A DNA stretch of 64,000 nucleotides from Paraspadella gotoi. Its lineage: Eukaryota; Animalia; Chaetognatha. Position numbers and translations under genes: made by a program. Below the pieces are notes generated by a model. It had not been told where the DNA came from and did no database searches. It saw only the letters and a program-made list of their open reading frames with translations. This document shows positions 20,896-59,095 of this stretch, piece by piece; positions within the stretch are counted from its first letter, which is position 1, and every line of letters starts with the position of its first letter. The stretch covers positions 460,272 through 524,271 of the forward strand of contig CM119269.1 in NCBI GenBank assembly GCA_051294375.1. Reading direction: 5' to 3'.

Positions 20896-20965
<70 letters not shown>

Positions 20966-23719: not shown

Positions 23720-23786
23720 TGCCGTTCCAGGATTCGAACCACCGACCTTTTCAAGTCAAACGTAAAACCAAAATTGCCATGGGAAC
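23720..23786 (-). mobile_element. tRNA-derived SINE head overlapping the end of the XK-like ORF
   Basis: Minus strand has an A-box-like TGGCAATTTTGG and a B box GGTTCGAATCC (23730-23740). Confidence 0.5.
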
Positions 23787-26896: not shown

Positions 26897-27007
26897 CCAC
26901 CCCGCCTCCAGGGGCGAAGGAGGCGGGTTTTATTTCGCCGAGGAGCCCGCGCAGCGCGCCGCCGCTACTGCGGCGGATGCTGCCTCCGATGCCGATAGCG
27001 TAGTCCG

Positions 27008-29764: not shown

Positions 29765-29876
29765 CCACCCCCGCTCCAGGGGCGAAGGAGGCGGGTTTTA
29801 TTTCGCCGAGGAGCCCGCGCAGCGCGCCGCCGCTACTGCGGCGGATGCTGCCCTCCGATGCCGATAGCGTAGTCCG

Positions 29877-31755: not shown

Positions 31756-32238
31756 TTTTTTTTTTTTTTTTTTTTTTTTTTCTTCTCGCTTTTTTTTTTT
31801 TTTTTTTCTCTCCATTTTTTTTTTTTGTTGAAACGTTCTCGATTTCTGTTCTGCTGGGTCTGGTCTTACGTTTTCTCTTCCCTCTTTCTTTTTCTTCTCT
31901 TCCTCTTCCTTCTCCTGCGTCTGTTTCTTTCTTTTTCTTTCTTTAGTTTGGCCCTCCTTGCTCTTTTTGGGATGCCCTTTTGCCCTGTTGGCCTTTTGGG
32001 TCATTTTCTTCGTCTTTCGCCTTCTTTCTTTTTTTTTCTTTTTTTTTTGCCTAGCTTCGATGATTCGCTGCGTTTTAAAGTTCGCTCGCGAGGATGATGA
32101 TGATGATTTTCTTCGTTCGCGGCGATGATGACGGTTTGTTGTTGTTGTTGGTTCTTGTTCGTTTTCCTTTTAACTAACTCTATTTCTACTGCTATTTTCT
32201 TTTCTTTTATTTACAGTTTTTGTTTTCTTCTTTTCTCA

Positions 32239-35200: not shown

Positions 35201-38200
35201 TTTATTTCTTCGACCAGAGTTCGTAGGGCTTTCTTGTGTGTTTCTTCAAAGCGGAAATCAGCCTTGTCAACTAACGTCAGTGCGTGCAGAGGCTGCGCCA
35301 AGTAGGAGAAACGATGGGTGAAGCAGCGGTAGTAGTTCAGAGAGGCCAGGAGAGCTCTGAGATCTTTCTGCGTTTTCATTTCCCGCAGTTTCACTTCTAC
35401 TTGTTCCAGTTTTTCTTGTTGGGGTCGCAGTTTGTCCCGGGAGATGCTGAAGCCCAGTATCTTGATGTCGTCCTTGCGGAGAAGGACGCTTTTTGTCCAT
35501 TTGAGAACGACGTTTTCCCTTCGACATATCTCCAGGAATTCTCTGAGCCGCTGAGCCATCTCCTCGGGCGACTTTGCTGTTAGGATTAGGTCGTCAACGT
35601 AAATAAGAAAGCTTTTTACGTCTCTTCCTAGGTCGGCAAAGATTTCGTCGAGGATTGCTTGGAGCACGTTTATGCTATTCACGCCTCCCATTGGCAGCTT
35701 ATTCATTTTCCAATTGTGGCCGGCGCCGGCGAAAGCTGTTACAGGTTTGCAGTGATCTGTCAGATTTACTTGGTGAAAGCAAGCCAAGATGTCGACGGAG
35801 CATTGGAGCTCGTGTGGTTTATATTCTTCGAGTATGGAGGCTATCGTCTGGGGTTCTGTCGCGAAGGTTGATATGTTGTTATTTACGGCCGAGAGATCGC
35901 AGATAAGGCGCCATTGTTTGGCGAATGTCTCGTCGTCCATCTTATCTTGATTTTCGGCGATGTGGTTTGGCTTTTTTATGAGAAAAGCGTTTGAGTAAGC
36001 TTCGCCTGATGTTCTTGAGACGACTCCGGCCTTTTCGTAAACCTCGAGATATCTTTTTAAAGCCGCTTTCTTTACCGGCCCTTGGTTTACGAATCTAGGT
36101 TTTGGCAGGTTTTCTTTTGTGAAACCAAGATCGACCTTGTAGTTTAGGAATCCTTCCTTACAGTCGTTTATCGTCTCTCCAAAAACATCTCTAAATTCCC
36201 AGACTACCTCCCAGACTATCTTTGCTTTGTCGACTAGGGAGTTGTCTACTTCTTTGAATGGTCGGAGAAATTCTTCTTTTCCTCTATCGTCATGTTTCTT
36301 TCTTCGCCTTTCTCTGGCAAGGCGTGCTGCTTCCAGTTCGGCATCGGAAGGGGTATGGTGTACGATCGTTGTTGGTGGAATGTTTTCTTTTCTGACTTTT
36401 CTGAGTCTTGGGGAATCGCCAGATAAATCCGCTTGGACTGGTCTTGCCGTAAGGCTTGTGGTGAGGCCTAGTTCGTCCTTCGCTTCCTCTGTTATGATCG
36501 GCCTCGCTTCTCCCCAAAACCCAGGTCTTCCGGGTAATTCGATGCCATGACGGAGGTCATCTCCTGTTGCAGAGCAGGTTGTGCTGCTGTCGGAAGATTC
36601 GATTATCCATTTTGCCTCTGCTAGAGATTTCCAATATGTTTTTGCTGCTCTTACGAGAGTCCTTCCGTTTTCATCTTTTTCAGCGTATAACGGGATCTGC
36701 GTCTCTTCGTCGATGCAGCGGTGAGCGAGCCATCTCGCGGCTTTCAACGCTGCCTGCTTGTCTTTGAAGAGGTGTGTTATGGGCTTTCCTGCCATCCGCG
36801 CAATTTGCATCCCTTTTGTTTGTGCTGGCGCCACCACCCACATTTCATTTGCGGGTCCCGGGTCTGTAGTGGTTGTTCCTATTATGATGTCCTTGTCTTG
36901 TTCATCCGGAGACACAAAGAAAATGGTGTCGAGTATCCAGTTTTGGAACATCACTCTGAGGTTTAACCTTTCTCTGATGATCACTACGCCATTTCCGGTC
37001 GTGACGCGCACTGGCGTTCCTGAATAGATTTTTCTGTGTAGTGACCATTCATCCACGAATTTCTTTGGGATCGTATTGATTGAGGCGCCGGTGTCGTAGA
37101 GACAGCTTGCAGGTGCGCCACCTACAACCGCTGGTATATAACTATTTCCTGCGGCGGCCACGCCTCTGTGGGTGTCGTCACGTGGTTGCGGAGGAGTTTC
37201 GTCGGTGGCCACATTCCATCCCAAACCCGTTGGCAACGGCGGAGGAGCTAGTTCGCCCTTTTCATTTTCGGGAGTTGGGCGTGGCATGGTGAAGATTTCG
37301 GGCTGGTGGCATTCAATTTCAACTCGCCTGATCGTAGCTTCATGCATCGATTCGCCTTCGTGGGTTCCGATTACAGAGTAAGTGGGGTTGTAGATTAACC
37401 TCCTCCCTTTCGCTGGTATCTGTCTTAGTCTATTCCACTTTGGCTTGTTCTGTACGGGTGCTCCTTCGGCATTGGTTTCCTTTTTGGCAGATTCGGCTGT
37501 CTTTTCCTGCTCATCCTGATTTTGGCTTTTTTTCTCTGCCCTATTTATCGCTTTTCTGCATAGTTTTTCACAGATTTTCAACCTTTTTGTTTGGGCTTCT
37601 CTTTCATCTGCTTCAAGGTGTCGCCATCTGCTCGACGTTTCCGTCAACATTGACATGGTAAGGATGCAACTGTCTTTGGCGTCCAAGGGTTTGAACAACT
37701 TGTGTAATCTACTCGCCGCCGATTTTCCCTTGAAAGACATTGCGATATCAGTGAACTCGGATAATCTCTTTGAGGGGCGGATGGGCTTATATTTTTCGGC
37801 CATAACCTTTATTTTGTTTGCCACTCTCTGGGCTAGCTTTGTTTTTTCAGGCTTACTGCTCGTTTTCTCTTGTTGAAAAGGTTTTGAGTAATTTTCTGAT
37901 TCTTTATTTTCATCTTCAAACAGGCTTTCATGATCAAAATCATCGTATCTACAATCTCTACGTTTTACATCAAATTTGTTGTATTTGTTTTCACGGAAAC
38001 GGCCTCTCCCATTCCAGCGTCCACGGTTTTCTTGTTCGCGGCGGTAGCCTCTGTTTCCTCCCGAGTTTCCTCCGCCTCGTTGTTCGCGTCCGCGCCATCT
38101 CGAGTCGTTCGCTGGGGCTTGGGTGGCTCCTTTCTTCAGGTCGTTTACCGACTTGACGAGCTTCTCTAACAATTCCCTCTGGTTGTTATTTTCCTGCAGC

Positions 38201-39519
38201 ATTGTTCCTTGGTAAAGGGCGTTGGCGCTCTCTACTGGGTTTTTGTCCTCGAGGCCCTTTTTTAGCAACGAATCAGTCAGGAGTTGTCGATCGTCTTCCT
38301 TCACGGTGTTTATGAATCTGCGAGCGCGCGCAGCTTCTTCTCGTCTGTCGACGTAGCCTCGCAGGAGCCACTCAATACGGTTTCCAAGTTCGCGACGCTT
38401 CCCTTCCGCTACGAGGCGTCTGAATTCCATGGCTTCGGATGTTATCCCTGGGGAGTATGGTTCCAGGGCCTTGGTGAGGAGTCGTGCAACGTGTCTTGCG
38501 ATGGAGGGGCGTTCGTCCTCTGCAACACGGTCGAATTTCCTGTAGACGGTGTTGACGAGCGCCAGTCCGCTTTCGGCGTGCTCTTCTGGGTCGATCGTGA
38601 CTATGATTTTATCGGCGACTTCTGCGGCGCCGATGGATGTTCTTTCACACATCTCTACGAGGCCGCGCCACAGGCTGCCGTCTATTGGGTCGATGTAGAC
38701 GCTGGCCTCTTCATCTCGGGCCAGCAGGGCTTGGAGTTGCTCGTTTACCTTTTCTTCATCGAAATCGCAGGCTCTTAGGGTTTTGTAGATGGCTCTCAAA
38801 AAATTTCGCGGTTTTTCATCGTTTCGGCGGCGATCTAGTTTGATCGTTGGCGTTATCACCGTGGCGGCGTTTTCGGCGCCTGCCTCCCCATGCCGGCCAT
38901 TTGGGTCCGCGGTTTCTGGTGCTGATGGTGCTGGTCGACGTGGTTCGGGGTGTTCGGAGTATCCGGGTGGCGCCGCTGGTTGCGTGTTTCGTTGGCGAGA
39001 GTTTTCGATCATTGTTTCGAGGCGGTTGAAGCGCTCATTGAAACCTGCAACGATGTCCGCCGTCCTGATTGCCGAGTTGACGGCCTGTTCCACTCGTCCC
39101 TGGAGTTGCTTCACGTCGTTTGAAAGCGCGGTGACGTTTCTGACTGCATCGTTTACCAGCCAGAGTGTGTCCCGGGTTACCTTCGCGTTGGTTTCCCAGT
39201 TGAAGGCTGGTTTACCACCGTTTAGGACTTTGTTTATATTTTCGGAGAGGCCGATGACGAGATTTTCCGACTCCGCCAGGTTGTTCGTCGACACTGCGCG
39301 ACGCGGGGTTCCACCGGCGGCGCCCCTTTCCGATTCGCTGCGGGGTCTTTCACCGATGTGAAATCTGTCGAGTTCCTCCGCGACGTCATCGACTACTTCC
39401 GCGCCGGGTTTTGGCGGTAGGTCGTCGGGGTTCAGTAAGCCAGTTGGCCTGTTTAGGTCGCTATTTGGAATGTTTCTTCTCTCGTCTTTTTTGTCGTCGG
39501 CGTGTTTCTTTCCGAACAT
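32239..39519 (-). CDS. gag-pol: Single-ORF Gag-Pol polyprotein (2426 aa): Gag, protease, RT, RNase H, extra insert, integrase
   Basis: Protease LYDTGAS; RT WRLICDL, LPMG, YVDD; RNase H ADAS..E..TDS..ADFLTR; integrase HEKLGH..CDTC, SIDVM, FDGA, RAER, GPY/F-like YTGPHEI; PR-RT-RH-IN order; intact ORF. Confidence 0.97.
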   Translation of the reverse strand: MFGKKHADDKKDERRNIPNSDLNRPTGLLNPDDLPPKPGAEVVDDVAEELDRFHIGERPRSESERGAAGGTPRRAVSTNNLAESENLVIGLSENINKVLNGGKPAFNWETNAKVTRDTLWLVNDAVRNVTALSNDVKQLQGRVEQAVNSAIRTADIVAGFNERFNRLETMIENSRQRNTQPAAPPGYSEHPEPRRPAPSAPETADPNGRHGEAGAENAATVITPTIKLDRRRNDEKPRNFLRAIYKTLRACDFDEEKVNEQLQALLARDEEASVYIDPIDGSLWRGLVEMCERTSIGAAEVADKIIVTIDPEEHAESGLALVNTVYRKFDRVAEDERPSIARHVARLLTKALEPYSPGITSEAMEFRRLVAEGKRRELGNRIEWLLRGYVDRREEAARARRFINTVKEDDRQLLTDSLLKKGLEDKNPVESANALYQGTMLQENNNQRELLEKLVKSVNDLKKGATQAPANDSRWRGREQRGGGNSGGNRGYRREQENRGRWNGRGRFRENKYNKFDVKRRDCRYDDFDHESLFEDENKESENYSKPFQQEKTSSKPEKTKLAQRVANKIKVMAEKYKPIRPSKRLSEFTDIAMSFKGKSAASRLHKLFKPLDAKDSCILTMSMLTETSSRWRHLEADEREAQTKRLKICEKLCRKAINRAEKKSQNQDEQEKTAESAKKETNAEGAPVQNKPKWNRLRQIPAKGRRLIYNPTYSVIGTHEGESMHEATIRRVEIECHQPEIFTMPRPTPENEKGELAPPPLPTGLGWNVATDETPPQPRDDTHRGVAAAGNSYIPAVVGGAPASCLYDTGASINTIPKKFVDEWSLHRKIYSGTPVRVTTGNGVVIIRERLNLRVMFQNWILDTIFFVSPDEQDKDIIIGTTTTDPGPANEMWVVAPAQTKGMQIARMAGKPITHLFKDKQAALKAARWLAHRCIDEETQIPLYAEKDENGRTLVRAAKTYWKSLAEAKWIIESSDSSTTCSATGDDLRHGIELPGRPGFWGEARPIITEEAKDELGLTTSLTARPVQADLSGDSPRLRKVRKENIPPTTIVHHTPSDAELEAARLARERRRKKHDDRGKEEFLRPFKEVDNSLVDKAKIVWEVVWEFRDVFGETINDCKEGFLNYKVDLGFTKENLPKPRFVNQGPVKKAALKRYLEVYEKAGVVSRTSGEAYSNAFLIKKPNHIAENQDKMDDETFAKQWRLICDLSAVNNNISTFATEPQTIASILEEYKPHELQCSVDILACFHQVNLTDHCKPVTAFAGAGHNWKMNKLPMGGVNSINVLQAILDEIFADLGRDVKSFLIYVDDLILTAKSPEEMAQRLREFLEICRRENVVLKWTKSVLLRKDDIKILGFSISRDKLRPQQEKLEQVEVKLREMKTQKDLRALLASLNYYRCFTHRFSYLAQPLHALTLVDKADFRFEETHKKALRTLVEEIKSTPGLNFLNDARIKNGDYKIYADASTSAMGGLITATAEGVEYPLCFHSKSFPEEYRIKHINLLETLAFNMMIRKFKGYICGRRVSLVTDSQYFKRIMDLQHDKQQLLPTNVLRWITEIKQECHPTEIILVKSEQNPADFLTRFTEQGQITPLDTPFLPAGFDVDGSYEPGFTENPITGETWPGHLKLRTGGAPTLAIIAEILKIDEKPFRSNFFKFVREKFEKRKENIRRNYGQPKTKNAETFIRAISAKDWNLGHPELELLAEMTGLCIIMLEEEFATPTGCKFERTYGKQENRKVKIFRSTTGQASLISDTENEATLRPTIADAERIQVTNITLGDLVLSAERERRNRGRRPNPETQTSRPRASLPADTVTVGTQRPAQIKQAGRPTTPLPSPPEQRNATRPPSPTPSPPVEGYARPPASPAHSDTHERLAAPPADSETPTDLVVLTSEDLRREGGRPGRRGRPPTQKINTIHPRDLPADTVTTNFNNETPRPPIYVGGDAAPNAESQQQPENQERELIGDSAIEASIDVTEQELDEEMSQPHTREPRLLPLREDVREWQEQDEDVKAAAHIIGHHDAETLRAHFRSTQAKTLNPMQIFLAKNAEDLRVAQDGMLFIVGFRGINRTTRHIIPQKNLKEIVRRLHEKLGHPGRDRTAYLSAIYIAAPGLYGACTSVVLECDTCRRATDEMHFNETEPGPTYAMTPWESLSIDVMHLPPSGGFQHVLVAADNASAYTWAMPIKRADAAHIIAALDKNIFLLHGSYLEINFDGATSLNGEEMRSILELLDMSGRRILVSRKNSNRAERDIGRIRQTLRKALNDNPNGWLKEIAHLMLALNATPITGWKTDMSPHELQFGNRPRIVETPEEKTYLSLADFAKERADTRDAAHQRIAEQRFGRFKATRRGNRMRDPKRLKVGDLVYVRRDLIRTGAAPSGNKIRTIYTGPHEIVERDGNHFKVTVSGQNLVYHRRRLKAATGESPAFRN

Positions 39520-39630
39520 CTTGACCGCGTTAGAAACGGTAGAAAGTTATTTTTCTTTTATTTAACGCAACTTGACGAAAACACGTTATGGTAGCGTGTC
39601 GTGGTTCTTTTCGGAGGTAGTGGGGCTGAT

Positions 39631-42516: not shown

Positions 42517-44638
42517 AAGAGATTTTGCATTAATTTTGCTACATAACATTCAGGAAGTAATGACCTCGAAAGAGAAGCTATAAAAAAAATAAATAATCAA
42601 TTGTAAATTTTTTTTCGACTGAATATTTTTTTCTCTGAGGCTACATTTCGTTCTTAAACTCATTTCATCTTGTACTGTTTCATCGAAACTTTTTTTTGTA
42701 CAACAGACAGAATTTTAACTTAATGCATCAATCCAATCACAAGTAATTGGTGATTAAAGCTAAGGTGGGACGGACAGACAGACGGACTAAAAATAAAATG
42801 GTGTATTGTTAGCGGTAGCCGACCAAATTCAAATTTTAATGGAACAGCATTAAACTAATCCATTATTGGTATAATTATTGTGTTAAATATTTTTGCAAAA
42901 ATGTTCCGAACCATGAGTAATTCGCTAATTTATAATGTCAAAAATTTTGGGGATATTTTAAGTTTTTTTTAATTGATTCTGATAGAGCTTAAAAGTTAAG
43001 CAAAAAATATAATTACAACTTTTTAAAATTTTGATGTCTTATTACTAAAAATTAGTAAAAACTGCTAAAATCATCGGATGATGATGATGATGATGATTTT
43101 TAAGGTTTTTCTCAATTTAAACCACTTATCATCAAAATATTGAAAAAAAATTGTACTTTGATTAAGATAACTTTTCATAAGCTATTTGAATCTGCTTTTA
43201 AAAATAAAAAATTGCCAAAAAATTTTGACATTTCTATCTATAATAAATATTAAAAAATTAATTACTAATACTTCTTGCCATTTTAGAAAAATTTTGCTCC
43301 ATTGAAAGTTTTCTCAGAAATGTATGAAGTTTCATTTGGAAAGGTTCCAAATCAAACTTCTGACCCACCCCATTGACGAAGTTTGGCTCTAGTATTGTGG
43401 CGGTATATTCACACCGCCTCACGTCCACCATCCTTCAGCCAAATCCATTGGCTCAGAGGGAAACACACCATCCCAGGACGTAGTGTTCCATCCACAGTCC
43501 TAACGACTTCCCTCTTCGTTGGCCAAAGCGAGACCGTCCTAGAGGTAACCGCGCCAGTGACTGGAGGCGTCATTAGGGTCGGAAGCCACAAAGCCAACAG
43601 TGAGATGCCCCATCCCAGTGGGCATCACAGGCAACCCGGCTGTTGCCATAGTTATTTATGTTTTTGTAGAACTTCTCAAACTCAATCAGAGCCATATTAA
43701 AAATTCAATTGTGTGAATATTCACAACACACTTTCAACGTTTATATAGATTGGTTTTAAATCTAGTTCGTTGTATTATGATTGTATGCCTTTAAAATTTA
43801 AATTAAATAAATTAAATTAAATAGTTCTTCCTCATTGAGATCATTGATGTGTCTTTCTGTTTAAAAGCTCTCAACCCAAATAATTTAAAAGTAACGAGTC
43901 AACATTCTTTCACTTTCAGGTTTGAGTAGATTAATGTTAAAGGGTGAAAAGTTAAAAGGTAAGTTTAAATCTTGTTCCAGCCGAATCCTTCCAATCCATC
44001 AGTCATGTGTCCAATTTCTTATCACCCCGATGCCGATGCAGCAGTTTTATTCGACTGCTCTGTTTTGCTTCGAAAAACCGGATCTTTTTAATTGAAGCGT
44101 AAATTAGACTCTTCACTTGAGTTCAGTCTAGAAGAGAAACTTAATTTTAAAGTAAAAATCATTAAGTAATTTAAGGGGATATATTTCGTATGGACCGTCG
44201 CCTAATGAAGGGATGACTAATTGACTAATTGACAATTGTCCATTACCAGATTACGTTAATTCTTTGGGCACATTAGTGGCGTGAGAGCTGAGATTAGTTC
44301 CACTTCGTAACTACATAGTCAATAGTCAGTCTTCCTGATTGGAATTCACAACTTCCCTGCATTCCATCAACGGATTTTCAAACCATACTTTTTAACAGGA
44401 TAATTTTTATTCGATTCTTAATCCTTTTTTAATTTAATCTTGCGAAACCAGTTTGTCGGCGTCATTATAAACTCTGCGGTCTGAGGCATTCTTCCCCAAA
44501 TAGGGCGTCATCGTCTCTTTTTGGAGGAATCGGGCGGAGAAGCACCTATGCAGGGAGAGAAAAAAGTGGTTTGGTCGCTTTCTTTCGCAATGTCGCATTA
44601 ACTCTTTCTTCTTCTCTCTCTTCTCCTCTCTCTCTCTC

Positions 44639-44696
<58 letters not shown>

Positions 44697-46184
44697 CCCT
44701 TTCGCTCGTATGACTTTTTTCATAATGACAGGATCTCTATTTTCAGAGCCGAAATTCCGTAACAAAATGACGGAGAACGCGCGTTAGAGCCGTAGAATCT
44801 CTCTCTTGGGNNNNNNNNNNNNNNNNNNNNNNNNNAGAGATTTTGCATTAATTTTGCTACATAACATTCAGGAAGAGAAACTATAAAAAAATAAATAATC
44901 AATTGTAACATTTTTTTTTGACTGAATATTTTTTTCTCTGAGGCTACATAGCGTCTTAAACTCATTTCATCTTGTACTGTTTTCATCCGAAACTTTTTTT
45001 TGTACCCACAGGACAAATTATACTTAATGCATCAATTCCAATTCGACCAGTTTAAATTGGTGATTAAAGCTAAGGTGGGACGGACAGACGGACGGACTAA
45101 AAATAGAATGGTGTATTTATGTTTTTGTAGAACTTCTCAAACTCAATCAGAGCCATATTAAAAATTCAATTTGGTGTGAATATTCCATCACACTTTCAAC
45201 GTTTATATAGATTGGTTTTAAATCTAGTTCGTTGTATTATGATTGTATGCCTTTAAAATTTAAATTAAATAAATTAAATTAAATAGATCTTCCTCATCGA
45301 GTCATCATTTGATGTCTTTTCTGTTTAAAAGCTCTCGACCCAAATAATTTAAAAGTAACGAGTCAACATTCTTTCAACTTTCAGGTTTGAGTAGATTAAT
45401 GTTAAAGGGTGAAAAGTTAAAAGGTAAGTTTAAATCTTGTTTCCAGCCGGATCCTTCCAATCCATCAGTCATGTGTCCAATTTCTTATCACCGCGATGCC
45501 GATGCAGCAGTTTTATTCGACTGCTCTGTTTTGCTTTCGAAAAAACCGGATCTTTTTTAATTGAAGCGTAAATTAGACTCTTCACTTGAGTTCAGTCTAG
45601 AAAGAGAAACTTAAGTTTTAAAGTAAAATCATTTAGTAATTGAAAAGGGACGTGGTTGGCGTCGCAGATCCCTTTTTCCATCCCACCTTGGCGCATGGGA
45701 TTGTTGGGAGGGCGGGGGTGTCCATTTTCTTTAAGGGTGGCGTGGTTTTTGTAAGGGCCGTCGCCTAATGAAGGGATGACTAATTGACTAATTGACAATT
45801 GTCCATTACCAAGATTACGTTAATTCTTTGGGGCACATTAGTGGCGTGAGAGCTGAAGATTAGTTCCACTTCGTAACTACATAGTCAATAGTCAGTCTTC
45901 CTGATTGGAATTCACAACTTTCCCTGCATTCCATCAACGGATTTTCAAACCATACTTTTTAACCAGGATTTAATTTTATTTCGGATTCTTAATTCTCTTT
46001 TTTATTTAATCTTGCGAAACCAGTTTGTCGGCGTATTATAAACTCTGCGGTCTTGAGGCATTCTTCCCCAAATAGGGCGTCATCGTCTCTTTTTGGAGGA
46101 ATCGGGCGGAGAAGCACCTAATGCAGGGAGAGAAAAAAGTGGTTTGGTCGCTTTTCTTCGCAATGTCGCATTAACTCTTTTCTT

Positions 46185-46236
<52 letters not shown>

Positions 46237-46238
46237 CT

Positions 46239-46281
<43 letters not shown>

Positions 46282-46375
46282 TTCGCTCGTATGACTTTTT
46301 TCATAATGACAGGATCTCTATTTTCAGAGCGAAATTCCGTAACAAAATAGACGGAGAACGGCGCTTAGAGCCGTA
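42517..46375. repeat. Direct duplication across the N-gap 44811-44835 (42517-44810 vs 44836-46375), probably two haplotypes
   Basis: Collinear near-identical sequence; copy 1 has ~845 extra bp (42808-43651) and copy 2 has ~100 extra bp (~45650-45750). Confidence 0.85.
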
Positions 46376-46512
46376 GCGAATTCCCGGGGTGAAGAAGCAA
46401 ATCGGTGGAACCGGCGTCGGCTGAAGGGAATCTCGTGAAACTCGTTTCTTTGGGGGGCCCCTCGGTCCCCTCGGCCCGGGTCTCCCTCCTCAAAAAGCGT
46501 CCCTCTCGCCGA

Positions 46513-46524
46513 GGATATAAAAGA
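46513..46524 (+). promoter_or_regulatory. TATA box of the IF gene
   Basis: GGATATAAAAG in GC-rich context ~280 bp upstream of ATG 46797. Confidence 0.55.
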
Positions 46525-46796
46525 GGACCCTCGCCGGGGATCCCCGCGGTCCTTTTCCGAAAAGCTCAACATCGCGCGCGCGTCTTTTCGCTCCTCCCTA
46601 ATTTTTTCAATTTTCGTGATCCCGAGGGTCTTACTCGCAAGACAACGACGGTCACTTCGTTACGACGTAATTTGAGTCGCAAAAAAAGTAAGAACCCCCC
46701 AATCACTAATTTTCCCAATGATCGATATTTACGAGGTAATGTTTTAAAAAAACTAAACTTTTCCTTAATAGCACTTCTTGCATCGCTATCGAAAAA

Positions 46797-49447
46797 ATGA
46801 GTTACGCTCAATCTCAATCCTACTCCGTCTCCTCCTCATCCGGCGGCGGCGGCGGCGGCGGCGGCGGCTCGGTGCAGATGAGCATGAGCGGCGGAGGCGG
46901 CGGCTCATCCGGCTTCTCTTCCATGAGCGGAGGAAGAGGTGATGTTTCCTTGTCCAGCTCCAGGAAGGTAAGTAATCCTCATCCACTTCTTCTTAAAGTT
47001 GCCCCAAATGACGGAGGTAACCCTCAATCCTTATTTACAGACGGACATTACCCGTACTAGTGGCTCCAGAGGCGGCGGCGGTGGGCAATCGATGCTGATG
47101 GCCCTTTCCTCCCTCGGCGGGGTGAGTCCATTTCGTGAACTAGTATTTGTTAGAAAATCGTGATTCTGACTTCCATCGCGATTGCTTTTTCAGGGTACGG
47201 CTGCCTACGCGGGAACTCACGATCTTGGAAGCAATCCGACTTCCGTCATTGCCAACCGGCAGAGGTTAATTTTCCAGAATGAAATCGTTGTTAATAATTC
47301 TTTCATAGCTAATTTTCTTTTAAAACGGCTTTTAGGGAGAAGCATGACTTGGAGGACTTGAACAAGAAGCTGGCCGATTACATCTCCAGCGTGGGCTATT
47401 ACAAGGCCAAGGTCAAGGAACAGGAGCAAATCATTGCCAATTTCAAGGGTGAGTCAATAAAGCGAAAAAAAAGTTATAAGACGACTATAAATGATATTTA
47501 TTTCAATCTCTCGCTTTCTCAGGCAAGTTCGAATCGATGGAAGCCAACCTCCGCGCCATCTACGATCCCGAGATGGAGAATCTGCGCGGAACCATCGACG
47601 CCACGGCGCGGGAGAAGGCGCAGGTCGAACTCAAGGTGGAGACTCTGGAAAACCTCTACAAGGACTTTCGCTCCAAGTAAGTTTTTGTCTCTTAATCTTT
47701 CCTCGCGTCAGATAAATTGCATTAGTCTTAACTCATTAATCAATTGCTGCGTCCAGGTACGAGGCTGAGCTCTCGGCCCACGAAGTGACGCGCGCCTCTG
47801 TTCCTAAACTCCAGCGTGAGCTTTCGGAAAAGGATGCTCAAATCGATTTCTTGGCTAAGACGCTTTCCAGCCTGGAACCACAAGTAGGTTTCTCAAATAT
47901 GATTTCGTTACAATCGTAATTATTGCGTATAATTAAAACACGTCTCGCATTGCACCGCGCGATGTGAAGAAATGAAAGGTTTCTAATATTCTTTTTTTTT
48001 TACCGAATTTATTACTTGGTTGGTTCGCGAGACCAAAAACAATTTTTCATCAAGACAGTCGATGGTACGAGAAAGATCTCGACATTTCCGCTCTTTAAAA
48101 CTTTCTTCTCTCGTCTTCTTCACCGCTCCCTCAACCATCAGGTGGGGGCGCTCAAGTCGCAGATCTCGACTTATCAGAAAGAGTCTATCGACGCGAAGAT
48201 GGGCGCCGACGCTGAGATCGTCCGTCGCGTGGAACTCGAGTCCAAACTCGTCACCAAGGAGGAAGAGATCGCGTTCCTCAAGAGGCTCTACGAGGAGGTG
48301 AGGTTTTTTTTTGAGAGTAAGTTCAGTCAACCGCTTCTTTCTCTCCACGGCGTTTGGGAATTTTCGCTTGACTTTAATTTTTCCCGCCTCGATCTATTTT
48401 TTAACTTGGCAAAAAAACTCATCGGCTTTTTTCGCAGACTCATTTATCAACGGCAATGTTTTGTCGGACCTTTTTCACGTATTACCCTGACTCAATTTTT
48501 TTCTAACTATGATTTCTTCTTTTTTTTCCTTTGGTTTTTACGTCGTTTTGTTTTGATAGTTTTGTTTTGATATTTTAAAAATAAATTTGTCGCTGATCAC
48601 AACTTCGTAATAACTTCAGAAACTACGCATGGCTTTGGATTTGGACATGGACTCCGCCGACGTGCAAGCCATCTACTCCAAGGAGTTGGGCAACGCGCTT
48701 TGCGACATCCGCGCCGAATACCAGGCTCAGCTGGAGGCTATTCGCCAGGGCGGCGGCGACGATTCCTGGTCAGAAATTTTGGACATTATCGAGGCGCCAG
48801 CGAAAGCTAACAATCCTTCTATCCTCCGTTTTCCCTTTTCTTCCCGTTCAGGTATCAACAAAGGTTCAACGCTATGATGCAAACTTCGGAGAAGCAGGGT
48901 CGCGAACTGGTCATGGCCAAGGAAGAGGTCGTCAAGGCCAAAACCAAGTATTCCGAGGCCGTGCAAAGCACTGGAGCCATGAGGAACGAGGTAGGTCGCC
49001 GAAAGAAAGGTTTCCCCCTTTTTCTTTTTCTTTTCTTTTCTTTTCTTTTATGATCACTCGATTCTCTTCTCTTTGTCAGATCGCTTCCCTCAAAGCGATG
49101 GTCGATGATCTCCAGTCCGCCATGGAAGAGGAGAAGAAGGCTCACTCGGTCGCCATTGGCGACCGCGATGCCCAGTGCGTCGAGTACAAGAAGCAGATCG
49201 CCGCCCACATCATGGAACTTAAGGGACTGATGGACATCAAATTGGGTCTCGACACCCAGATCGCCGAGTACCGAAGGCTCTTGCTGTCCGAGGAGACCAG
49301 GTTGAACAGCGAAACAATTAATAAATAGCAGATGAGAAAAGAAACAAAATAATAAACCAAAGATAACATAAAAAGTTGCTGTTGGTTAAGAAAGAAAGAA
49401 AATAGAAAGAAAGAGAAAGAAAAAGAAAGAAAGAGAGAAGAAAGAAA

Positions 49448-49480
<33 letters not shown>

Positions 49481-49994
49481 AAAGAAAGAAAGAAAGAAAG
49501 AAAAGAAAAATAAAAAAAGTTTAAAAAAAGTATATATATAGAAATGTATATAAAATTTAAAATATGAGATCAACAAAGTTTCAATTTTTTTACATCGAGC
49601 TTATCACTCCTGCTCACATTCGCCCCCAATATTAAAGAATGCGCGGGAAACCGGTTCGGCCGGCGGCGGCGGCGGCGCCGTCACCATGCAATCTAGCAGC
49701 TCGACCTTCAGCAGCAGCGGCGGCGGGAGCAGCGAATGTCTAGCGGCGGCGGGAGCAGCGGATTCTCCAGCGGTTCCACCATGTCGCAGTCTTCTTCAGC
49801 AGTAAGTTCTTTTTTCATTGCCAATGTCATGGAAGGGGAGGAAGAAAGTTTTAGTTTTTTTTTTAACGCGAGGAGAATTTTATTTGCAATATAAAGTGAT
49901 TTAGTAATAGTATCTTTCGTTTTCAACCCGGGCTCTAGCAGAAATATGCGTCGTTGGCTGGTTATTTATCGACTCTTTCATTTAATCTTCAGAG

Positions 49995-50087
<93 letters not shown>

Positions 50088-52549
50088 TTCTCTCTTATAT
50101 CTCTATCTCTTCTCCTCTGGCATGCACACCCATTCCGCTCAAGCTCTCTTAAAAAAATCCGTTTCACGACCAATTATATTCTCCTTGATCGAGCAAACCG
50201 TTCTTTTAACATCCGCTTCATCAAAAAGCACTTTAAGGCACACACACGCACACACACCAATTGAATTTCCAGTTTTCACGATCGATATTCCAAATCGGGT
50301 TACGTCGATCCTCGCCAACCGGTTTTCCGAGTCGTCCACCTTTTGAAGCGCTTCGAGGATCGTAAATCTCCTTTCCTTTCCAACCCTGGCTTCGGTGGTC
50401 GCCGGTGGCGGAAGAATCAGTATCCATTACCGGTGTAGCGATAATTACTAATAACCTAAAATCGTAGCATGGGGTGAACTCCAGCCTGAAGGAATGGAAG
50501 CGATGAAATATGCCCCTTTGCTTCCTATCTCCCTCTCTCTCTCTCTCTTCGTCTTCTCTATCTCTCTTCCTCTCTCGTACCCAGGCTGGAGTTCCTCCAC
50601 GGTGACCACATCCACCTATCGCGGGGCTTCTGCGGCCGAGCGCGACCACTACATGCGAGTTTTCCGCCACTTCGACCGCAACGGAAACGGCATCGACGTC
50701 AACGAGATGAAGACCGTCCTGGATTGGGCCGACGATCAGAGCTTCGGCGGACGCGCCCGACGCAACGCCTCCGACGAATATTGCCGCAGCCTCATGGCGA
50801 CCGGAGACGCGGACTCGAGCGGAAGCCTCGATTTCGAGGAATTCCTCAAACTCATGATTTTTGAGAAAAAATTCAACCTGATGAGGTCGTTCCGGTCGGC
50901 CGACGTGGGGGGCAAGGGCTACCTAACTGAGCAAGAGGTGGTGGTCGGACTCAGGTCCGCCGGTTACGAAGTCGCCGACACCGCGGACCTGCTCCGAAAC
51001 GCCGTCCACGAAGACGGCAAAGTCCGATACGAGGACTTTGTTCGCAATCTTTAAAATAGAATAGAAAATAGATAAATGAATAAATAAATCAATAAATAAA
51101 AATACGGGTTAAAGCAGATTTAGAAGGCACTTTTTGACACGGCAAATTTTCACAATTCCTTCTTGATCAGTTTTGTTTTTTTGTCTATTGTTTTTCGGAT
51201 TTTTTTTTTATAATAAAAATACATTGGATCGGATAATACTTTTTTCCTTATAAAAAGTATACCTACTAAGCACCTTATGTTGGTAGAGAGATTTTTATTA
51301 ACTAGCTTCTACTTTCTTTCATACAACTTTTTTTTCTTCCTTATTAAATAATTTTTTGATTCGTAATTAAGGAGAGTCGAGGCAAAAAAGGAAAAAAAAA
51401 AAGCGAAGGGAAAAAAATCAGTTACGCGGGAAAGATTTTCGGTCTTTGCTCAAGGAATGTAGCTGAGCAACTTTAGACGAGCACGAAATAAAATAAAAAT
51501 TAAAATAATTTCTTTCTCTTCGTCACTTATTTTTTTTAATTCTCCCGATTTTCAAGTTTTGAGCGAGAGTTAAAAATCCTAAGATAACGCCGCCCCCTTT
51601 TGGCCTGAAGCTTCCTAAATATCGCAAAAGATGATTTCCACTCGCTCATTAACCCCTCCCTACCCTTTTTGGTTCCATTTATATCTTGCCCCTACGCGAA
51701 ATCCCTGCAAACCCACTTGATAACGCCCTTCTCACTTTGAAGCGGAAAATGGGACAGTCGGAGATCCAGGGCGGCGGCGGGTCCGAATATGTCTCGGCCA
51801 CTTTCGTCCTCTTCGGGACAAAGTTTGTGTTTTGTTATTCGTCACCCGGAGATATTCCGCGCCCTTCCTTGTTCGATTGCTCCCTCGCGATTCGTTTAGT
51901 TGTAGAAATTACATTTTATCGAGCTACCTTTTTTTATCGAAATCAGTTTATTCCCGTGCCACATAAAATTATTTTGAAAAGGCCGCAGGCTGAGACTTAT
52001 TGTTGATTAATTTTAAGTAATTGAGCATATCTCTTCTGGGGGATCTCCAGTGCCCGAATTTTGATAAAAGGCTCATTCCGCGAAGGGATGGCTCGAAAAG
52101 TGTTTAATATATATACGACGAATAAAAAAAGGATTTAACAAAATTCAAGTATAATTATATAAAGAAAAAGGAAGATTTTTTTTAATGCTTTAATTTTTAG
52201 TTTAATTTATTTTTTAATTTGTTTAATTATATTTAATTTTGTTAAATTCTTATTGTTGGGCCTTATTTCTTCGTCTAACTACTGGAGTTTTTTTCTCTCT
52301 GGTAGAAAAGATCTGACCCGACGTCGCGACCCAAAGTGAACGCATTCTCCGACTTTAAAAGTCGGGGTGATTGCGTCACAACCCTCCTTTTCACATCTTT
52401 TTTTTTCTCACTGACAAATTCGTAACGTTTTCGATTTACAGTGTCCAGCAGCGGAGGGTCTGGCGCATCAGCAAGCGGTATTCATTTTTATCATTTTGAT
52501 CAAATTACAAGTGACACTTGATAATTATTGTGACGTTTTTTCTGCATTC

Positions 52550-52587
<38 letters not shown>

Positions 52588-54834
52588 TCTCTCTCTTCTC
52601 TCTCTCTCTCTCTGTTTTTACACTGATAACCGCTCATAATAGAAACATTGTGGCAGCAAGACTTAAAGCTGACCTCACTGCATGTCCGTCCTCCAGCCCT
52701 ACGTCTCAATGGCATGAGCAGGCTAGCATCAATCTCATTCCATCCGCTGACGTCCCGGGTTCAATCCCTGGGTATCCGGTTCTTGGCTTAATGGTGGACG
52801 GTGCCCGGTATAAACCATTGGCCAGTGACAGGAGGGGCGGTCACTGAGGGTCGCAGCTCCCTATGCCAGGTTGTGAGAATGAACCCCGCGCCCGGGTATC
52901 CACAGTGCTATCCTCCGTTGGCCATGAAGTGGTGAGCCCTACTCCGCACACGGCACCGTCTGCGCAACCGTGCGCCCGACGCTTACGTCGCTTAGGGTAA
53001 TGCATATCACGCCTATGCCCTAACTTCTCTGGTAACGCTCCCAGACTCGCTCGCTCCGGCGATCGCCCAGCATCGGCTCTCACTATGGGCAATGAGATGC
53101 TAAAAACCTTCTCTCAGAATGCTCCATCAGGATTGAGGCTCCCTGTGGAGAAGTCTGGTGGGGGGATTCCTGTGCAGCAAGACTTAAAGCTGGCCTCACT
53201 GGCTGTCCGTCCTCAGCCTCGTCTCAATGGCTGAGCAGCTACATGCATCTCATTCCGCTATCCGTGCGTCCGCGGGTCTCAATCCCTGGGTAATCCCCGG
53301 TTCTGGCTTAAATGTGACGGTGCCCGGTATAAACATGCCAGTGACAGGAAAGGCGGTCACTGAGGGTCCGCAGCCCCTATGCAGTTTGGTGAGATAGCCC
53401 CGCGCACCCGGGTATCACAGGCTATCCTCCCGTTGGCATAACATCCTGGTTTCTCCACGGGTACGTTCCTTCAAATAGGAACGAAGCCCTTGTCGGGGGA
53501 CAGAGGTGAAAAGCCTGAACCAGTGAAGGTGTTCGACAAGAAAGAGAACTATTATTAGAAATAATATAACTTAATAATAATAATAATAATATAATATCCT
53601 CAATAATATCATTAAATAAATAAATTAAACCATCCGCCTTTCTCCTTGAATTTCCTTGCTTTACTCACCCATTTTTCTCCGGCTGCCAACGAGGTTTAAT
53701 CTTACCTGTGCCCCCTCTCTTTTGCGCAGGCGCAATGTCGCAATCGATGGCGCGTACGACGTTCCAGGCGTCGAGCAAAGGAAAGGCGGCCATTTCCGAG
53801 ACAGCCGCCGACGGTCGGTACATCGTCGTCGAGAACAAGCAGGGTTCCGTAAGTAACTTTTTTCTTATTATTTCATTCCCATTACTATCTATTAGGGTGA
53901 AATGAAAGTTTGGAATCAAAATTTAGCAGTTATATCTTGAAAACTATCATATTAGTAAATACTAATCTATAGTTATTTTTATTTTTTATCGTCAGCTTAT
54001 TTTGTAAATATTGCTACCCTTATATATTGTTAAAATTTTTAAATAGTTTTTTTTTTTAAATTCTGAGAACAAATTCAGATTCTTAGTTAAAAGTTCATAA
54101 AAGAAAATGTAAATATTTTTTTAAATTTATATGTTTAAGTAGGTTAAAATTATAAAAACCTATAACTATAAGCTTTAAAATTTAAAAATTTTTATTTTGA
54201 AATTTTAGCATATTATATATTTATTGTTATATATATATATAGCTCACTGGTACCCACTAATGTATAAAATTTAAAAAATTAATTTATGAAAGTATTTTTA
54301 TTAGTTTTTATTTTTATATTGTAAATGCTAAACTTTAATTTTATATAATTTTATTATTTTCACATCACTCTACTATCTATTACTATCTTGTACCATCTTG
54401 ATATTGTTGGAATGGTTTTGGACAGACGATGGACTTTGGTGGATGGAGGATCGAGCGCAAAGTGGACAACAACGAGCAATTGACCTTCGTCTTCCCTCCT
54501 GGCACCAACATTGGAGGCTTCTCCACCATGAAAGCAAGTTTTTTTTATAATATATATATTATTGTATTTTATATTTATATGTATGTATCTCTCTCTTTTG
54601 TTTTTCTTTTTATTTCAAATTATTTTATCATACCTTTTCTCTATATTTTTTTTTGTTAAACTTAATTTCTTTCTATCGCAGGTCTGGTCCCAAGGCGCAC
54701 AGGGAGCCCTACAGGATAACGCTAACTTGATCTGCAACGTTCAATGGGGAGTCGGTTTCAACGCCGAGAACTCTCTAAGGAACCCCGCCGGGGAAGGGGA
54801 AGCCTCGCTCACCCAAAGGACCATGCTCGGTTGA
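46797..54834 (+). CDS. Cytoplasmic intermediate filament protein, lamin-tail-domain isoform (exons 46797-46967, 47041-47121, 47194-47264, 47336-47448, 47523-47676, 47757-47883, 48142-48297, 48620-48768, 48852-48990, 49080-49300, 49638-49801, 49942-49960, 52442-52477, 53730-53848, 54426-54533, 54682-54834)
   Basis: Gly/Ser head; coil 1A EKHDLEDLNKKLADYI; lamin-length coil 1b; rod end KLGLDTQIAEYRRLLLSEETR; LTD KGKAAISETAADGRYIVVEN..DFGGWRIERKVD..FVFP..VWS..WGVG; no NLS or CaaX. Exon 11 needs two 1-bp corrections. Confidence 0.92.
50585..51054 (+). CDS. Calmodulin-like four-EF-hand terminal exon inside the IF gene
   Basis: Loops DRNGNG-IDVNE, DADSSGSLDFEE, DVGGKGYLTEQE and a degenerate EDGKVRYED; long polypyrimidine tract + CCAG acceptor; TAA stop, then several AATAAA at ~51078-51100. 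Confidence 0.9.
52650..53440 (+). mobile_element. GC-rich interspersed element with a tRNA-like head, tandemly duplicated (52650-52925, 53173-53440) in an IF intron
   Basis: A-box-like gtctcaatgg and B box GGTTCAATCCC; the second copy is collinear with many small deletions. Confidence 0.6.
53893..54372. mobile_element. hAT-type MITE (480 bp) in an LTD intron
   Basis: TIR tagggtgaaatgaaa / tttcacatcactcta (12/15); perfect 8-bp TSD CTATCTAT at 53885-53892 and 54373-54380. Confidence 0.85.
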
Positions 54835-55987
54835 AGTCAATTCAAGAGCAGAAAGAGCAAGGGGGAGAATCAAACCCGCCTTCTGGGGTCTGTTTCCTTT
54901 GCGGGGTCTTTAACCCGTCAAATAATCCACGGTTCCCAGACCTAGAGGCTCTTTTATCAGAGAGCTTTCTTTCATTTTTTTCTTTATACTTCAAATCTTA
55001 ATAGTTTATTCATTTTTTTCAATTTCTGGTTATTAGATTGCCTTTTTTTTTTCGTTTATTCTAGTCTGCCTTTCATCCTAAAATTTAATGCTTGTCCCAC
55101 GCATTTTCTTGTTTAACCAAAACACAATCCGGATTGGTCCTGTTATTTTTGTTTTTATGCCTTTTTTGTTGTTCGTCGTGTATTTGTCGTTTTGTCATTT
55201 TGTCAAGAATGCGCTTGATCTGCATTAAATCTTGAAAAATATAAGGAATTGGTGATCCTGATTTCAAGTTCTCGTTTTTTTTTTTAGAAATATAGAATTG
55301 ACTTTAATCAATGTTTCATAAACCGAATTAGCTATTCCAAAGAATTCAAGTTTTCTCATTTTCAAATTCTCTCAGGTTCTCGTTTTCTGTTTTGAACTTC
55401 ATTCTCTGCTATTTAAAGCGGATCTTGATTATTGTAATCTTTAATTTGAGCCGGACAATGTCAAAGGCTTTATGTTTTGTGACAGGTCTGTCATTAGTGT
55501 TAGTCAAGAAACTATAAAAGGGTAGCGCAAGTCAAGTTGAAGTTTTGTTCAAATAATTTTAAAAATATATGAAGTACCATGTCGTCAAATGTTTTATAGG
55601 ACGAGCACAGAAAAAATTAACAGGACTTAGCTAACTAATGGATAGATCATATGGGTGCTAAAGCCTTTTTTTTTAGGTCGGTACCCGTAGATCTCCTTGT
55701 AGAATTAAGAATTTATTTTTAATCTAAATTGGCAAGGAGACAACCGAGACAAACGAAACCTCTCGCAGACGATTTTCTCGAACGAAATCTTTTCTCGAAA
55801 AGGTCAGTTGGTGACTTTTTCCTTCTTTTGTTTTCCCTGTCTTCACTCTTTTTTCTTTTAACTAATTTTGAAAATTTTCCTTCATTTCTTGGCAAAATTG
55901 GAATTAAATTATAAACGCGATTTGAACAAAAATTTTCACTGTGTCGCCACGTTAAAAAAAAAAAAGATTTTCGCTTTCAGTTAAAAA

Positions 55988-57499
55988 ATGAACGCGATTT
56001 TCCTGTTTTTATCTTTCGTGGTTTCTTTTGCCGCGACAACTTTAAGAGAGAAAAAGTTGGTAAGTTTAACTGATGACGAAGTTTTCCAATCTTAAATCAT
56101 AGTAAACCTCGTTTTTCGAATTTCGTTACAGATGCTGCAAGGAACCACAAACTATGCGGTGGTTGACGGCCAGACGAGGTATAATTTTCAAGTTTTTTTT
56201 CAAGGTATAAAATTTTTGGTATTTGACCAAAAAAGTGATTTCATTCAGGATTAAATTAAAAATAGTAGTTATCAAAGCTTATGAATTATACATTATTGTT
56301 CCTCCTCTGATATTTACTTCGTATTATCCTTTACCGGGTCCCCGCTTAAAACTCCCTCAGACTCGTCGCAATCGAGTTTCCGTGTTTGGTTTTTTTTGTT
56401 TTTTTGTTTTGTTTCTCCTTTTATGTTTTTCGATTTGTTTTTATTGATTCTCTAACAACTCGCTGAACAGATGTCTCTCTCCGACAGATGCGGCCCAATA
56501 AATGACAGGTGTCGAATTGGCGTTTCACCCATGAACGACTCCATCGAACGAACCCCGAATCAACGAATCCTTGGCCTTAACTCGAGGGAAGGGATCCGGT
56601 CGTGATTGAAGTCCTCATAGTTGTCCTTTTCTTTATTTACGTCGTTTCCGCTATTTTTATCCTCATCTGAGGTGTCGCTACCGAACTCATTCGTTGCCAT
56701 CGTCTCGTAAATATGCGATAAAAAATGACGCAAACAAATGGCGAATTGCGTAAATTATAAAGATAATTCAATATTCGATCCCAGGTGGCGCAGGAACGAA
56801 TCTCGATCTAGAAGAAAGAAGAAAAAGTTGAAGAAAAAAAAGAAAAAGACAAGAAAAGGAAAGGAACCTCGAAAACGAAAGAAATTACCGTCTCGCCTCA
56901 AGGGGCCAGCTTATTACAAGGCGTTGCTTAAAACCGACAAGTACAAGGGTCTGGCCCACTCCTTCATCTGCCCTGGACCGGGTATTCGAGTAAGAAACCC
57001 TTCGAGATGCACGTCCGTCTATTACAAGTGCGTCTACGAAGGCGGTATTGGCAAGCGGGAAAAGTGCGCCAAAGGTAAACGTGGTCGAGATTCAATTAAT
57101 ACTATCATCCTACAGCCATTTTTTTCAATTAATACTATCATCCTACAGCCTTTTTTTTTTACCAAAACGGGCTCGGGCTATCCTAGGCAGAGAACGAACT
57201 TTTAACTAAGCACTAAACGAATACATTTAATAAAGAAATAAGTCATGAGAAATAAAATTCAATTTTTAGGCCTGGTTTGGGACGTCGACCGTAAGACTTG
57301 CGATTGGAAAGACAACGTTTTCTGCGATAAAACGACGACGACGACGACGACGACGGTTTCGTGGGCGACGACGACGACGACGACGAGAAAAAAACAAAGG
57401 AAAATCCCAATGACATTTGGGAAATTTCTTTTGACCAAACTCGATCGAAAATTCCCAACGCCTCCGGTGAGCTTAACTCGACCAGCTCTCCTTTATTGA
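55988..57499 (+). CDS. Secreted polybasic protein with a chitin-binding type-2 (CBM14/peritrophin-A) domain; exons 55988-56059, 56132-56178, 56488-56508, 56785-57074, 57270-57499
   Basis: Signal MNAIFLFLSFVVSFA; phase-compatible GT-AG introns; six-Cys CPGPG..NPSRCTSVYYKC..EKCAKGLVWDVDRKTCDWKDNVFC; Thr-rich tail. The 3' end could splice further at ~57466. Confidence 0.82.
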
Positions 57500-59095
57500 G
57501 AGACGGGCGAGCGAAAGGATCTTTCTCCAAGCCAGGGACGTGCGGATTTTTTTTAAGGCCAGCGCTTAGTCTCGGTGCCTACAAAAGCTTCTAATGTAAT
57601 TGTTAAAAGGCTAGTAGTGTATCACTGTATTGAGTTAAACGTATTATCTCATTTCTCTGTAATATCGTTAGCGTTCCTCTCGAATCCCTTCACATTCTCC
57701 CTCACAATCAAAGCAATTTCTTACTTTTTGTGTCCGTAAAGAAATTTTAAAAATATTTAAAATCTTTCATCTGAGGGTTGACTCTTCTTAATTTCAACTT
57801 CGATTTTCAACCGAAGCCGTAAGGATCCTCATTATCTGCGTTGACTATCTGAACCCTATATCTGTCGATATATCTATATCTGTCAATATGTCCGTCAAAT
57901 TTATTAATTGGAATTGAACGATTTATTCTTTTTAAGACAACAATATAATATTTAACCATGTAAAAACACAGTTAACGAACTGACTCATCTAAACATTCCA
58001 AAAAAAGACATTTTGTTGACCTTCGGTATAACGGTAACCGCTTTTGCTTACCACCTGCTTTGCTCCCAATGTTCGCCAGCCTTTCTGGATCAAAGACGGA
58101 GGACTTGCCGCGGCCGTGATTCCGTACAGAAAGAAGGAGCCCGCGGCACTTAAGGGGTACGCCCACATTCTCTCCACCAATGGACTTGCAGCAACCACCG
58201 TCATTTTTATCTTGATTTACTTAACTACTATTATCGATTAATTTGAATTAAAAAAGGCGAAAAAAAAATGTTCTGACATCTTTCATGACGAGTTAGTTAA
58301 TCGCGATTTAGAATCGATATTTATTTTTTAAAAAATCACAGTTACACTTACACAAAATACATTTACGTAGGAATGATAAAAATAAAAAATTGTTTAACCC
58401 TCCACTTACAAATACATTTTGGCGCTAGGAAATCAATTTAATATAATTATGAAATAGTTAACAGAGTGAAGCTGCTGATTTTGATTTTGCGCCAATTAAG
58501 GGGGTACAATATTGGTAACCACATATGAAGCACAGGATTTGTGTTCTTATATTAATAGGTGTGAACTGATTAAAATTTTTAAAATAATTTATATGCGAGG
58601 AAACTTCAAAAATTAAAGGTTCTTTACGGTAAATGTACAAGAAAACTTTCTATTTTATTTACATGTAAAATTAATACAAAAGATTAAAACCCAAAAATAA
58701 AAAAAATAAATAAAATGAAAGACAGAATGCATTGGATGGAGAAAAACAAGAACCTTGATAGAAAAAGCAAGGGAAATAGAGAGAGAGATCATAAAAACGG
58801 AACTGAACTAAAACTAAATACATTGTCATAATTCATTTTAGCGATATGATATCATCGGATAAAGTTTACTGGCCCAATAATTTTAATGAGAATAAAAAAT
58901 GGCGTTTGGTAGGATTTAAAAAAAAATACAGAGCATATCGAAGGATAATTCAATTGACAAAATACAGATATGGTACCTTCCCTCCTTTTTCCTCCATCTC
59001 TCTCTCCGTCTCCCTCTCCCTCTCCCTCTCTCTCTCCGTCCTCTCGTTTGAAAGAATTAGTTCCATTAACGCCAGGCGTCCCAACGGACGATCAT

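Follow-up and report, generated by a model that had tools for sequence, protein, structure and literature searches.

An intermediate filament gene of Paraspadella gotoi with a lamin-tail end and a predicted alternative EF-hand end

Layout of the filament gene and its terminal exons

The 64,000-nucleotide stretch of the genome of the chaetognath Paraspadella gotoi analyzed here (GenBank assembly GCA_051294375.1, contig CM119269.1, positions 460,272 to 524,271; the whole stretch is called the window) carries a cytoplasmic intermediate filament (IF) gene that runs on the + strand from an ATG at 46797 to a stop codon at 54834, and an exon for an EF-hand module is situated in its intron between the tail exon 49638-49801 and the exons for the lamin-tail domain (LTD) (Table 1). 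Head and rod together make 460 stop-free codons. A preliminary description of this DNA had placed the EF exon (50585-51054) on the strand of the IF gene, with a strong 3' splice site, its own stop and poly(A) signals, a start in phase 1, and a first internal Met within the first EF helix, and all of this holds. The exon is open for 155 codons to its stop and begins in phase 1; its CCAG acceptor, with upstream pyrimidines at 0.87, ranks second among the 17 acceptors scored; three AATAAA signals follow; and the first internal Met, at 50653, falls within the first helix of the structural model (H16-29). The exon matches Pfam EF-hand_7 (E 8e-17), and its GC3 of 0.76 is like the 0.77 of the rod.

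Four sequencing runs of P. gotoi were found, and the two that contain words of the gene, X1 and X2, provided contigs whose RNA nature is a guess. The X1 results refer to the 15 of 18 joints and the 9 of 10 loose ends that were listed. Every head and rod joint was recovered in X1, and the donor at 49801 was joined to 52442 (depth 1715), to 53730 (depth 707) and to 51743 (depth 799), all on the LTD path. No ranking of isoforms is based on X1 contig depths; rare variants are lost from contigs. The X2 contigs do not cover the EF exon, nor is 49857-50119 covered, and neither gap is counted as evidence. Genome and X1 differ at a single site inside the EF exon. The three LTD isoforms differ only in the length of a Gly/Ser linker, and similar linker variation is present in the relatives P0174-P0178 (our identifiers). 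The linker exon 51743-51822 had been overlooked in the preliminary description, as had in-frame ATGs at 50494 and 50503. A GC-AG intron in the LTD, at 54533/54534, is borne out by both runs.

The X1 contigs depart from the genome assembly in the tail exon by one extra letter near 49645, one after 49733 and one near 49797, the first two of which are present in X2 as well. The assembly is missing three single bases here, and the true exon measures 167 nt, with a phase-1 end. To this corrected tail exon the EF exon can be joined directly in frame, which gives a rod-EF protein of 672 aa, and the exons of the LTD path fit the tail exon directly in the same way. A micro-exon at 49942-49960, proposed earlier as a converter of the tail exon from phase 0 to phase 1, must be withdrawn because the tail exon already ends in phase 1 and an additional 19 nt would break the frame; neither of its boundaries is used among the joints listed. 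The proposal arose from the assembly error. Of the junctions it entailed, 49801/49942 and 49960/50585 are unseen among those joints; 52442 and 53730 are genuine phase-1 acceptors as had been claimed, but in the joints listed 52442 is joined from 49801 and not from 49960. The assembly differs from X1 by many single-base indels at 49638-49801, in the exon 51743-51822 and in introns over 51803-52461, and phase arguments from the window alone are therefore unsafe.

Table 1. Features of the IF gene (window coordinates)
Feature	Position	Strand	Basis
IF head exons (Gly/Ser-rich head)	46797-46967, 47041-47121, 47194-47264	+	Joints in X1 and X2; tblastn with P0002/P0003
IF rod exons	47336-47448, 47523-47676, 47757-47883, 48142-48297, 48620-48768, 48852-48990, 49080-49300	+	Joints; Pfam Filament
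Shared Gly/Ser tail exon; the two paths part at its donor, gtaagt at 49802	49638-49801	+	X1 contigs; reading frame
Micro-exon candidate, rejected	49942-49960	+	No joint; frame broken
Open CT-rich tract 5' of the EF acceptor with in-frame ATGs at 50494 and 50503, basis of a nested-gene alternative	50494-50584	+	
Alternative terminal exon: Ser/Thr linker and calmodulin-like two-lobe EF module, own stop	50585-51054	+	Pfam; 45% identity to C-terminus of P0002; AlphaFold2 model
AATAAA signals at 51079, 51091 and 51212, 3' of the EF exon (putative usage)	51079-51217	+	
Cassette linker exon, LTD path	51743-51822	+	X1 joints 49801>51743 and 51822>52442
Cassette linker exon, LTD path, phase 1-1	52442-52477	+	X1 joint from 49801; loose ends to 53730
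LTD exons 53730-53848, 54426-54533 (GC donor), 54682-54834 (with stop)	53730-54834	+	Joints in X1 and X2; tblastn to the LTD of P0003

By its sequence features the gene is a protostome-type (L-type) cytoplasmic IF gene, as the type is defined in PMC3046923 and PMC10125929 (here and below, papers are cited from those portions of their text that were available). The rod carries the end consensus motifs of PF00038, and the length between these motifs is 338-341 residues in five family members versus 299-300 in three keratins; this rod, longer by about 40 residues, agrees with the type, which is marked by a coil 1b about 42 residues longer than that of keratins. An alignment of the window rod with P0002 shows no large gap. 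The LTD isoform has an LTD in its tail. The features of a nuclear lamin, a nuclear localization signal (NLS) and a C-terminal CaaX, are lacking: neither an NLS-like basic run nor CaaX occurs in the tails of five relatives, and the two tails encoded in the window end in ...TMLG and ...VRNL. A hydrophobic, Met/Leu-rich head motif before coil 1A (window 47086-47121; about residues 59-71 of P0002) is kept in all 13 head-bearing members aligned and is a candidate assembly or EF-target site. In chaetognaths, the stratified epidermis expresses the gene Ifea-2 (PMC12460157) and an IF protein (bioRxiv 10.1101/2025.01.31.635879), and PMC1885248 cites Erber et al. 1998 on IF genes of chaetognaths.

Relatives with either tail and the EF-hand module

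The preliminary description had suggested a search for proteins that combine Filament (PF00038) with EF-hands, and such proteins exist: among 96 stored family proteins, 35 have a rod and EF-hands, 25 a rod and an LTD, and 36 neither, these being sequences that include cluster members, many of them near-identical, rather than species. The last rod exon as query found three proteins among 264 candidates, including P0002, a protein of 639 aa with Filament and EF-hands, and P0003, one of 669 aa with Filament and an LTD (Pfam E 1.7e-11), which are identical over 475 residues and then diverge. The EF exon as query against longer proteins had found none among 759 candidates, a blank that reflects limited sensitivity given what the later rod query retrieved. 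Further pairs of EF-tailed and LTD-tailed proteins share one block of identical residues each (P0212/P0211, 521; P0219/P0238, 466; P0221/P0239, 468; P0222/P0178, 468), and P0257/P0165 share 520 in two blocks. At the protein level, relatives thus bear the same head and rod with either tail.

Querying with P0002 gave 43 matches, seven of which have both Filament and EF-hand Pfam families, and the only named ones are vertebrate keratins, which suggests that annotated proteomes are lacking for the lineage of the relatives, perhaps that of the arrow worms; a HMMER search with the EF exon gave two proteins with an IF rod (P0038 and P0086) among the 150 of 886 matches listed. The rod-EF proteins form 10 clusters from JGI/IMG, Logan, ENA and merc, and this variety of source kinds argues against a single chimeric assembly. 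The EF exon of the window is 45% identical to the C-terminus of P0002 over its full length, including the linker that adjoins the acceptor, and 47-55% identical to eight fused modules of the clade of its rod; the same EF module forms the end of rods whose identity to P0002 ranges from 34% to 81%. For a rod tree, 28 sequences were selected without near-identical members; in it the window rod falls into a clade supported at 100/99 with 18 rows and six EF/LTD sister pairs, and P0038 and P0086 fall into a separate one. The latter two and their clusters are distant, EF-tailed IF paralogs, 34-39% identical to P0002 and keeping different loops, and no LTD partner for them was present among the stored proteins. 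The tree of EF modules is compatible with one gain of the module or two: 17 of its 24 inner branches are open, and a topology that unites the 11 IF-type modules is not rejected (p-AU 0.49). A further paralog (P0172, P0242, P0250) has the same rod with either an LTD or no folded tail, and tail switching is therefore general in this IF family. A metagenome scan yielded three loci among 429 candidates, two with an LTD, one tailless and none EF-tailed, with no shared 5' leader. ESM Atlas returned only generic IF clusters (0.75-0.77) and no usable match for residues 400-639. P0268, located on a 1.26-Mb contig, is unrelated in sequence.

The EF exon was modeled by AlphaFold2 as a two-lobe EF protein (pLDDT 83.7, 12-sequence alignment), each lobe with paired helix-loop-helix motifs, and Foldseek matched the model to calmodulin and troponin C; the best PDB matches by sequence are SCaMC-1, troponin C, calmodulin and calcium-dependent protein kinase (CDPK), with E values of 1e-8 to 1e-11. 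The four EF-hands of the preliminary description therefore stand as a fold and not as four Ca2+-binding loops, since in the window one of the four fits the PS00018 pattern (taken from PMC8329775). That loop is EF2. Among eight close relatives, the pattern is fitted by EF2 in 8/8, EF1 in 6/8, EF3 in 3/8 and EF4 in 0/8. The lobes are bridged by one continuous helix (83-105), and the spacing of EF2 to EF3 is 32 versus 36 in the calmodulin-like P0132. With this single helix, the model looks like a compact attached regulator rather than a wrap-around calmodulin.

Interpretation and alternative explanations

We consider it likely that one IF gene is provided with two mutually exclusive ends, an EF module or an LTD, and that it yields a predicted Ca2+-binding subunit in P. 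gotoi. The first step of such a mechanism is seen here in the RNA-type contigs, where splicing from 49801 to 51743, 52442 or 53730 makes LTD forms with three linker lengths. In the second step, represented in relatives, the same donor would be spliced to 50585 and the transcript would end close by, at the poly(A) signals behind the exon, to yield the 672-aa rod-EF protein; we hold this with good confidence for P. gotoi, where the protein is probably a minor or tissue-limited form. In the third step, the N-lobe would bind Ca2+, through EF2 always and EF1 in most relatives, and the degenerate C-lobe would serve as a structural or docking lobe, which seems reasonably probable from the conservation of the loops; Ca2+ sensing is thus a prediction from one or two loops.

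Several observations weigh against this reading. The joint 49801>50585 is not seen among the listed joints of the X1 contigs, and no loose end at 50585 is among the loose ends listed. The contig with the tail exon has a depth of 3174, about the sum of the three LTD joints. A single unbroken X1 contig (50225-51714) contains the EF exon and crosses its acceptor unspliced. The rod-EF junctions of the relatives are known at the protein level, from assembled contigs. As to Ca2+, EF1 of the window is one residue short of the pattern and EF3 and EF4 are degenerate, and the distant fused paralogs P0038 and P0086 do not have a canonical EF2, each keeping other single loops. The choice of an alternative terminal exon, as proposed earlier, has strong support from assembled transcripts of relatives and from the gene layout here, and its rod-EF joint is unseen in the P. 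gotoi contigs. Other introns are likewise covered by X1 contigs (51803-52461, 53440-53758 and 47856-48171), meaning that the material includes unspliced RNA or DNA; because rare variants are also lost from contigs, the missing joint is no refutation. Logan contigs undergo a SPAdes-like graph simplification (PMC12424806); a variant of depth 8 survived elsewhere in the X1 contigs. Within an IF intron, at about 52650-53430, two copies of an element of about 300 bp draw many high-depth, indel-rich X1 contigs, and the element is likely a transcribed multi-copy repeat; nothing in Rfam matched across 44000-58000.

If the fused isoform is real, its EF module might still be a Ca2+-independent structural or docking tail in the place of the LTD, which we regard as unlikely though the strongest of the alternatives. 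The single canonical loop in the window fits this explanation, as do the loss of EF1 in the window, P0157, P0158 and P0038, the loss of EF2 in P0038 and P0086, and the continuous interlobe helix with its short EF2-EF3 spacing, and there is a precedent in the calmodulin-like domain of muscle alpha-actinins, which has degenerate loops and does not bind Ca2+ (PMC8329775). What speaks for Ca2+ binding is that, in the core clade, the EF2 ligands are kept in 9/9 members and those of EF1 in 6/9 at an overall identity of about 50%.

A second alternative is that in P. gotoi the EF exon serves, additionally or exclusively, as a nested gene. Its transcription would start within the intron, and translation from the ATG at 50494 or 50503 would add a hydrophobic leader that resembles a signal; otherwise the exon would be trans-spliced at 50585. 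The X1 contigs over 50120-51714 are unspliced at 50585 and the bin 49857-50143 has a mean depth of 4.3, the frame is open from 50455 with the two in-frame ATGs, and the 31 codons upstream match the exon in codon usage (0/2000 random sets reach their score), a test in which exon and upstream tract look alike. The leader, however, is the CT-rich acceptor tract read as Leu and Ser and stop-free by composition (GC3 0.58), the unspliced coverage is shared with other introns, and the listed loose ends include none at 50585 for a leader either. The EF-only matches P0005, P0009, P0011 and P0218 have no common N-terminus and are fragment-like, and all complete close homologs are rod-fused. We therefore judge a nested gene improbable; like a Ca2+-independent tail, it can coexist with the fusion. 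Less probable again is that the exon is a recent relic, an ancestral alternative end that P. gotoi no longer splices in: the lack of an X1 joint and the shortened EF1 loop would agree with this, but the intact frame of 155 codons, the codon use like that of the rod, the poly(A) signals, the strength of the acceptor, the single genome/X1 difference inside the exon, and an end branch of 0.28 in the EF tree versus 0.20 in the rod tree do not. That the database fusions arose during assembly, by the false joining of a nested EF gene to an IF transcript, is highly improbable, for although all fused proteins are predicted from assembled contigs and seen as protein, there are 35 of them in 10 clusters from four source kinds, in frame and with the branch point of the LTD form, and rods as little as 34% and as much as 81% identical to P0002 share the same end module.

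Chains of IF proteins form parallel dimers, so that EF and LTD forms of the gene, with their common head and rod, would co-assemble. On the favored reading of one gene with two ends, an EF subunit would tune filament assembly or cross-linking, and by analogy with the calmodulin-like domain of alpha-actinin, EF tails would place packing, bundling or partner binding under the control of Ca2+. A more tentative idea, to which we would give somewhat less than an even chance, is that a whole animal lineage, perhaps the arrow worms, has IFs with a built-in calcium switch, in which splicing would set the ratio of EF to LTD forms in the copolymer. A rise in Ca2+ would then act on the filament directly, needing neither kinases nor free calmodulin, and would alter its bundling, stiffness or disassembly in a matter of seconds.

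The remainder of the window holds other features. An IRE1-like gene at about 9000-16844 (+) has kinase and Ribonuc_2-5A exons, an AIG1-family GTPase is located at 20025-21673 (+), and two AT-rich hydrophobic open reading frames (ORFs) of 517 and 223 aa, at 24319-25872 and 23751-24422 (-), have no Pfam match. A Ty3/Gypsy-type retroelement at 32239-39546 (-) contains an ORF of 2435 aa with protease, reverse transcriptase, RNase H and integrase, and the ORF downstream of it, at 31051-32169, has no Pfam match; the retroelement region (26482-31594; 32239-39546) shows a 2.3-kb tandem duplication of 96% and repeats of about 430 bp at 26484, 29359 and 39649. On the 5' side of the IF gene, 43653-44795 and 45114-46376 form a repeat of 94-96% across an N gap at about 44812-44835, likely an assembly duplication.

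Comparison with known systems

IF networks are remodeled mainly by phosphorylation, proteolysis and separate binding proteins. Our literature searches, which covered mostly open-access texts, turned up no IF subunit with a Ca2+-binding domain of its own, and no description of an IF rod fused to EF-hands was found in the literature on the architecture or the lineage, on whose priority Erber et al. 1998 could bear. The term 'EF-hand' is absent from the available main texts of PMC4829535, PMC4448529, PMC10125929, PMC12460157 and bioRxiv 10.1101/2025.08.21.671432 and from three text supplements of PMC12460157. The matched pairs, with a common head and rod and two folded tails, occur in at least six rod lineages, and they make testable both the role of a folded tail (LTD) in a cytoplasmic filament and the direct switching of an IF network by Ca2+. 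They also offer a clear case of domain gain via an alternative last exon, kept over a long divergence, and an EF-tailed IF is a possible part for engineered Ca2+-responsive protein fibers.

With L-type cytoplasmic IFs of rod and LTD, the gene shares the long rod, the LTD and the lack of an NLS-like run or CaaX, and it differs in a second terminal exon that substitutes a calmodulin-like module for the LTD. Architectures of cytoplasmic IFs are conserved within subtypes, the protostomian one being a rod with an IG domain (PMC4448529). The closest known cases are lamins whose C-terminus varies by splicing, as in annelids, cephalopods and rotifers (PMC10125929), and the PDZ-bearing lamin of the salmon louse, an earlier gain of a signaling domain by an IF rod (PMC4448529). 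In the former, as here, an extra exon gives a second C-terminus beside the ancestral one, but those lamins are nuclear and acquire short peptides as second ends, and the louse protein has its PDZ at the N-terminus, whereas here a folded EF module replaces a folded domain.

Among Ca2+-binding proteins, calmodulin and troponin C, the regulatory domain of SCaMC-1, and CDPK are alike in sequence matches, and calmodulin and troponin C in fold as well. The EF module of the window is nevertheless not calmodulin proper: one loop in four is canonical, its identity to calmodulin chains is 24-28%, and it has an insert between EF1 and EF2, a shorter interlobe helix and a degenerate C-lobe. Alpha-actinin and spectrin, like the rod-EF proteins, place a two-lobe EF end on a cytoskeletal rod, and exist in Ca2+-sensitive and insensitive forms, and this EF end has been suggested to regulate its neighboring domain (PMC8329775); their rod is built of spectrin repeats, dimerizes in antiparallel and binds actin, and it is not homologous to the IF rod, so that the likeness is functional only. 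S100-fused proteins such as trichohyalin and filaggrin, and spectraplakins, bring EF-hands to IF networks as separate IF-associated proteins, whereas the rod-EF proteins carry them within the filament subunit itself.

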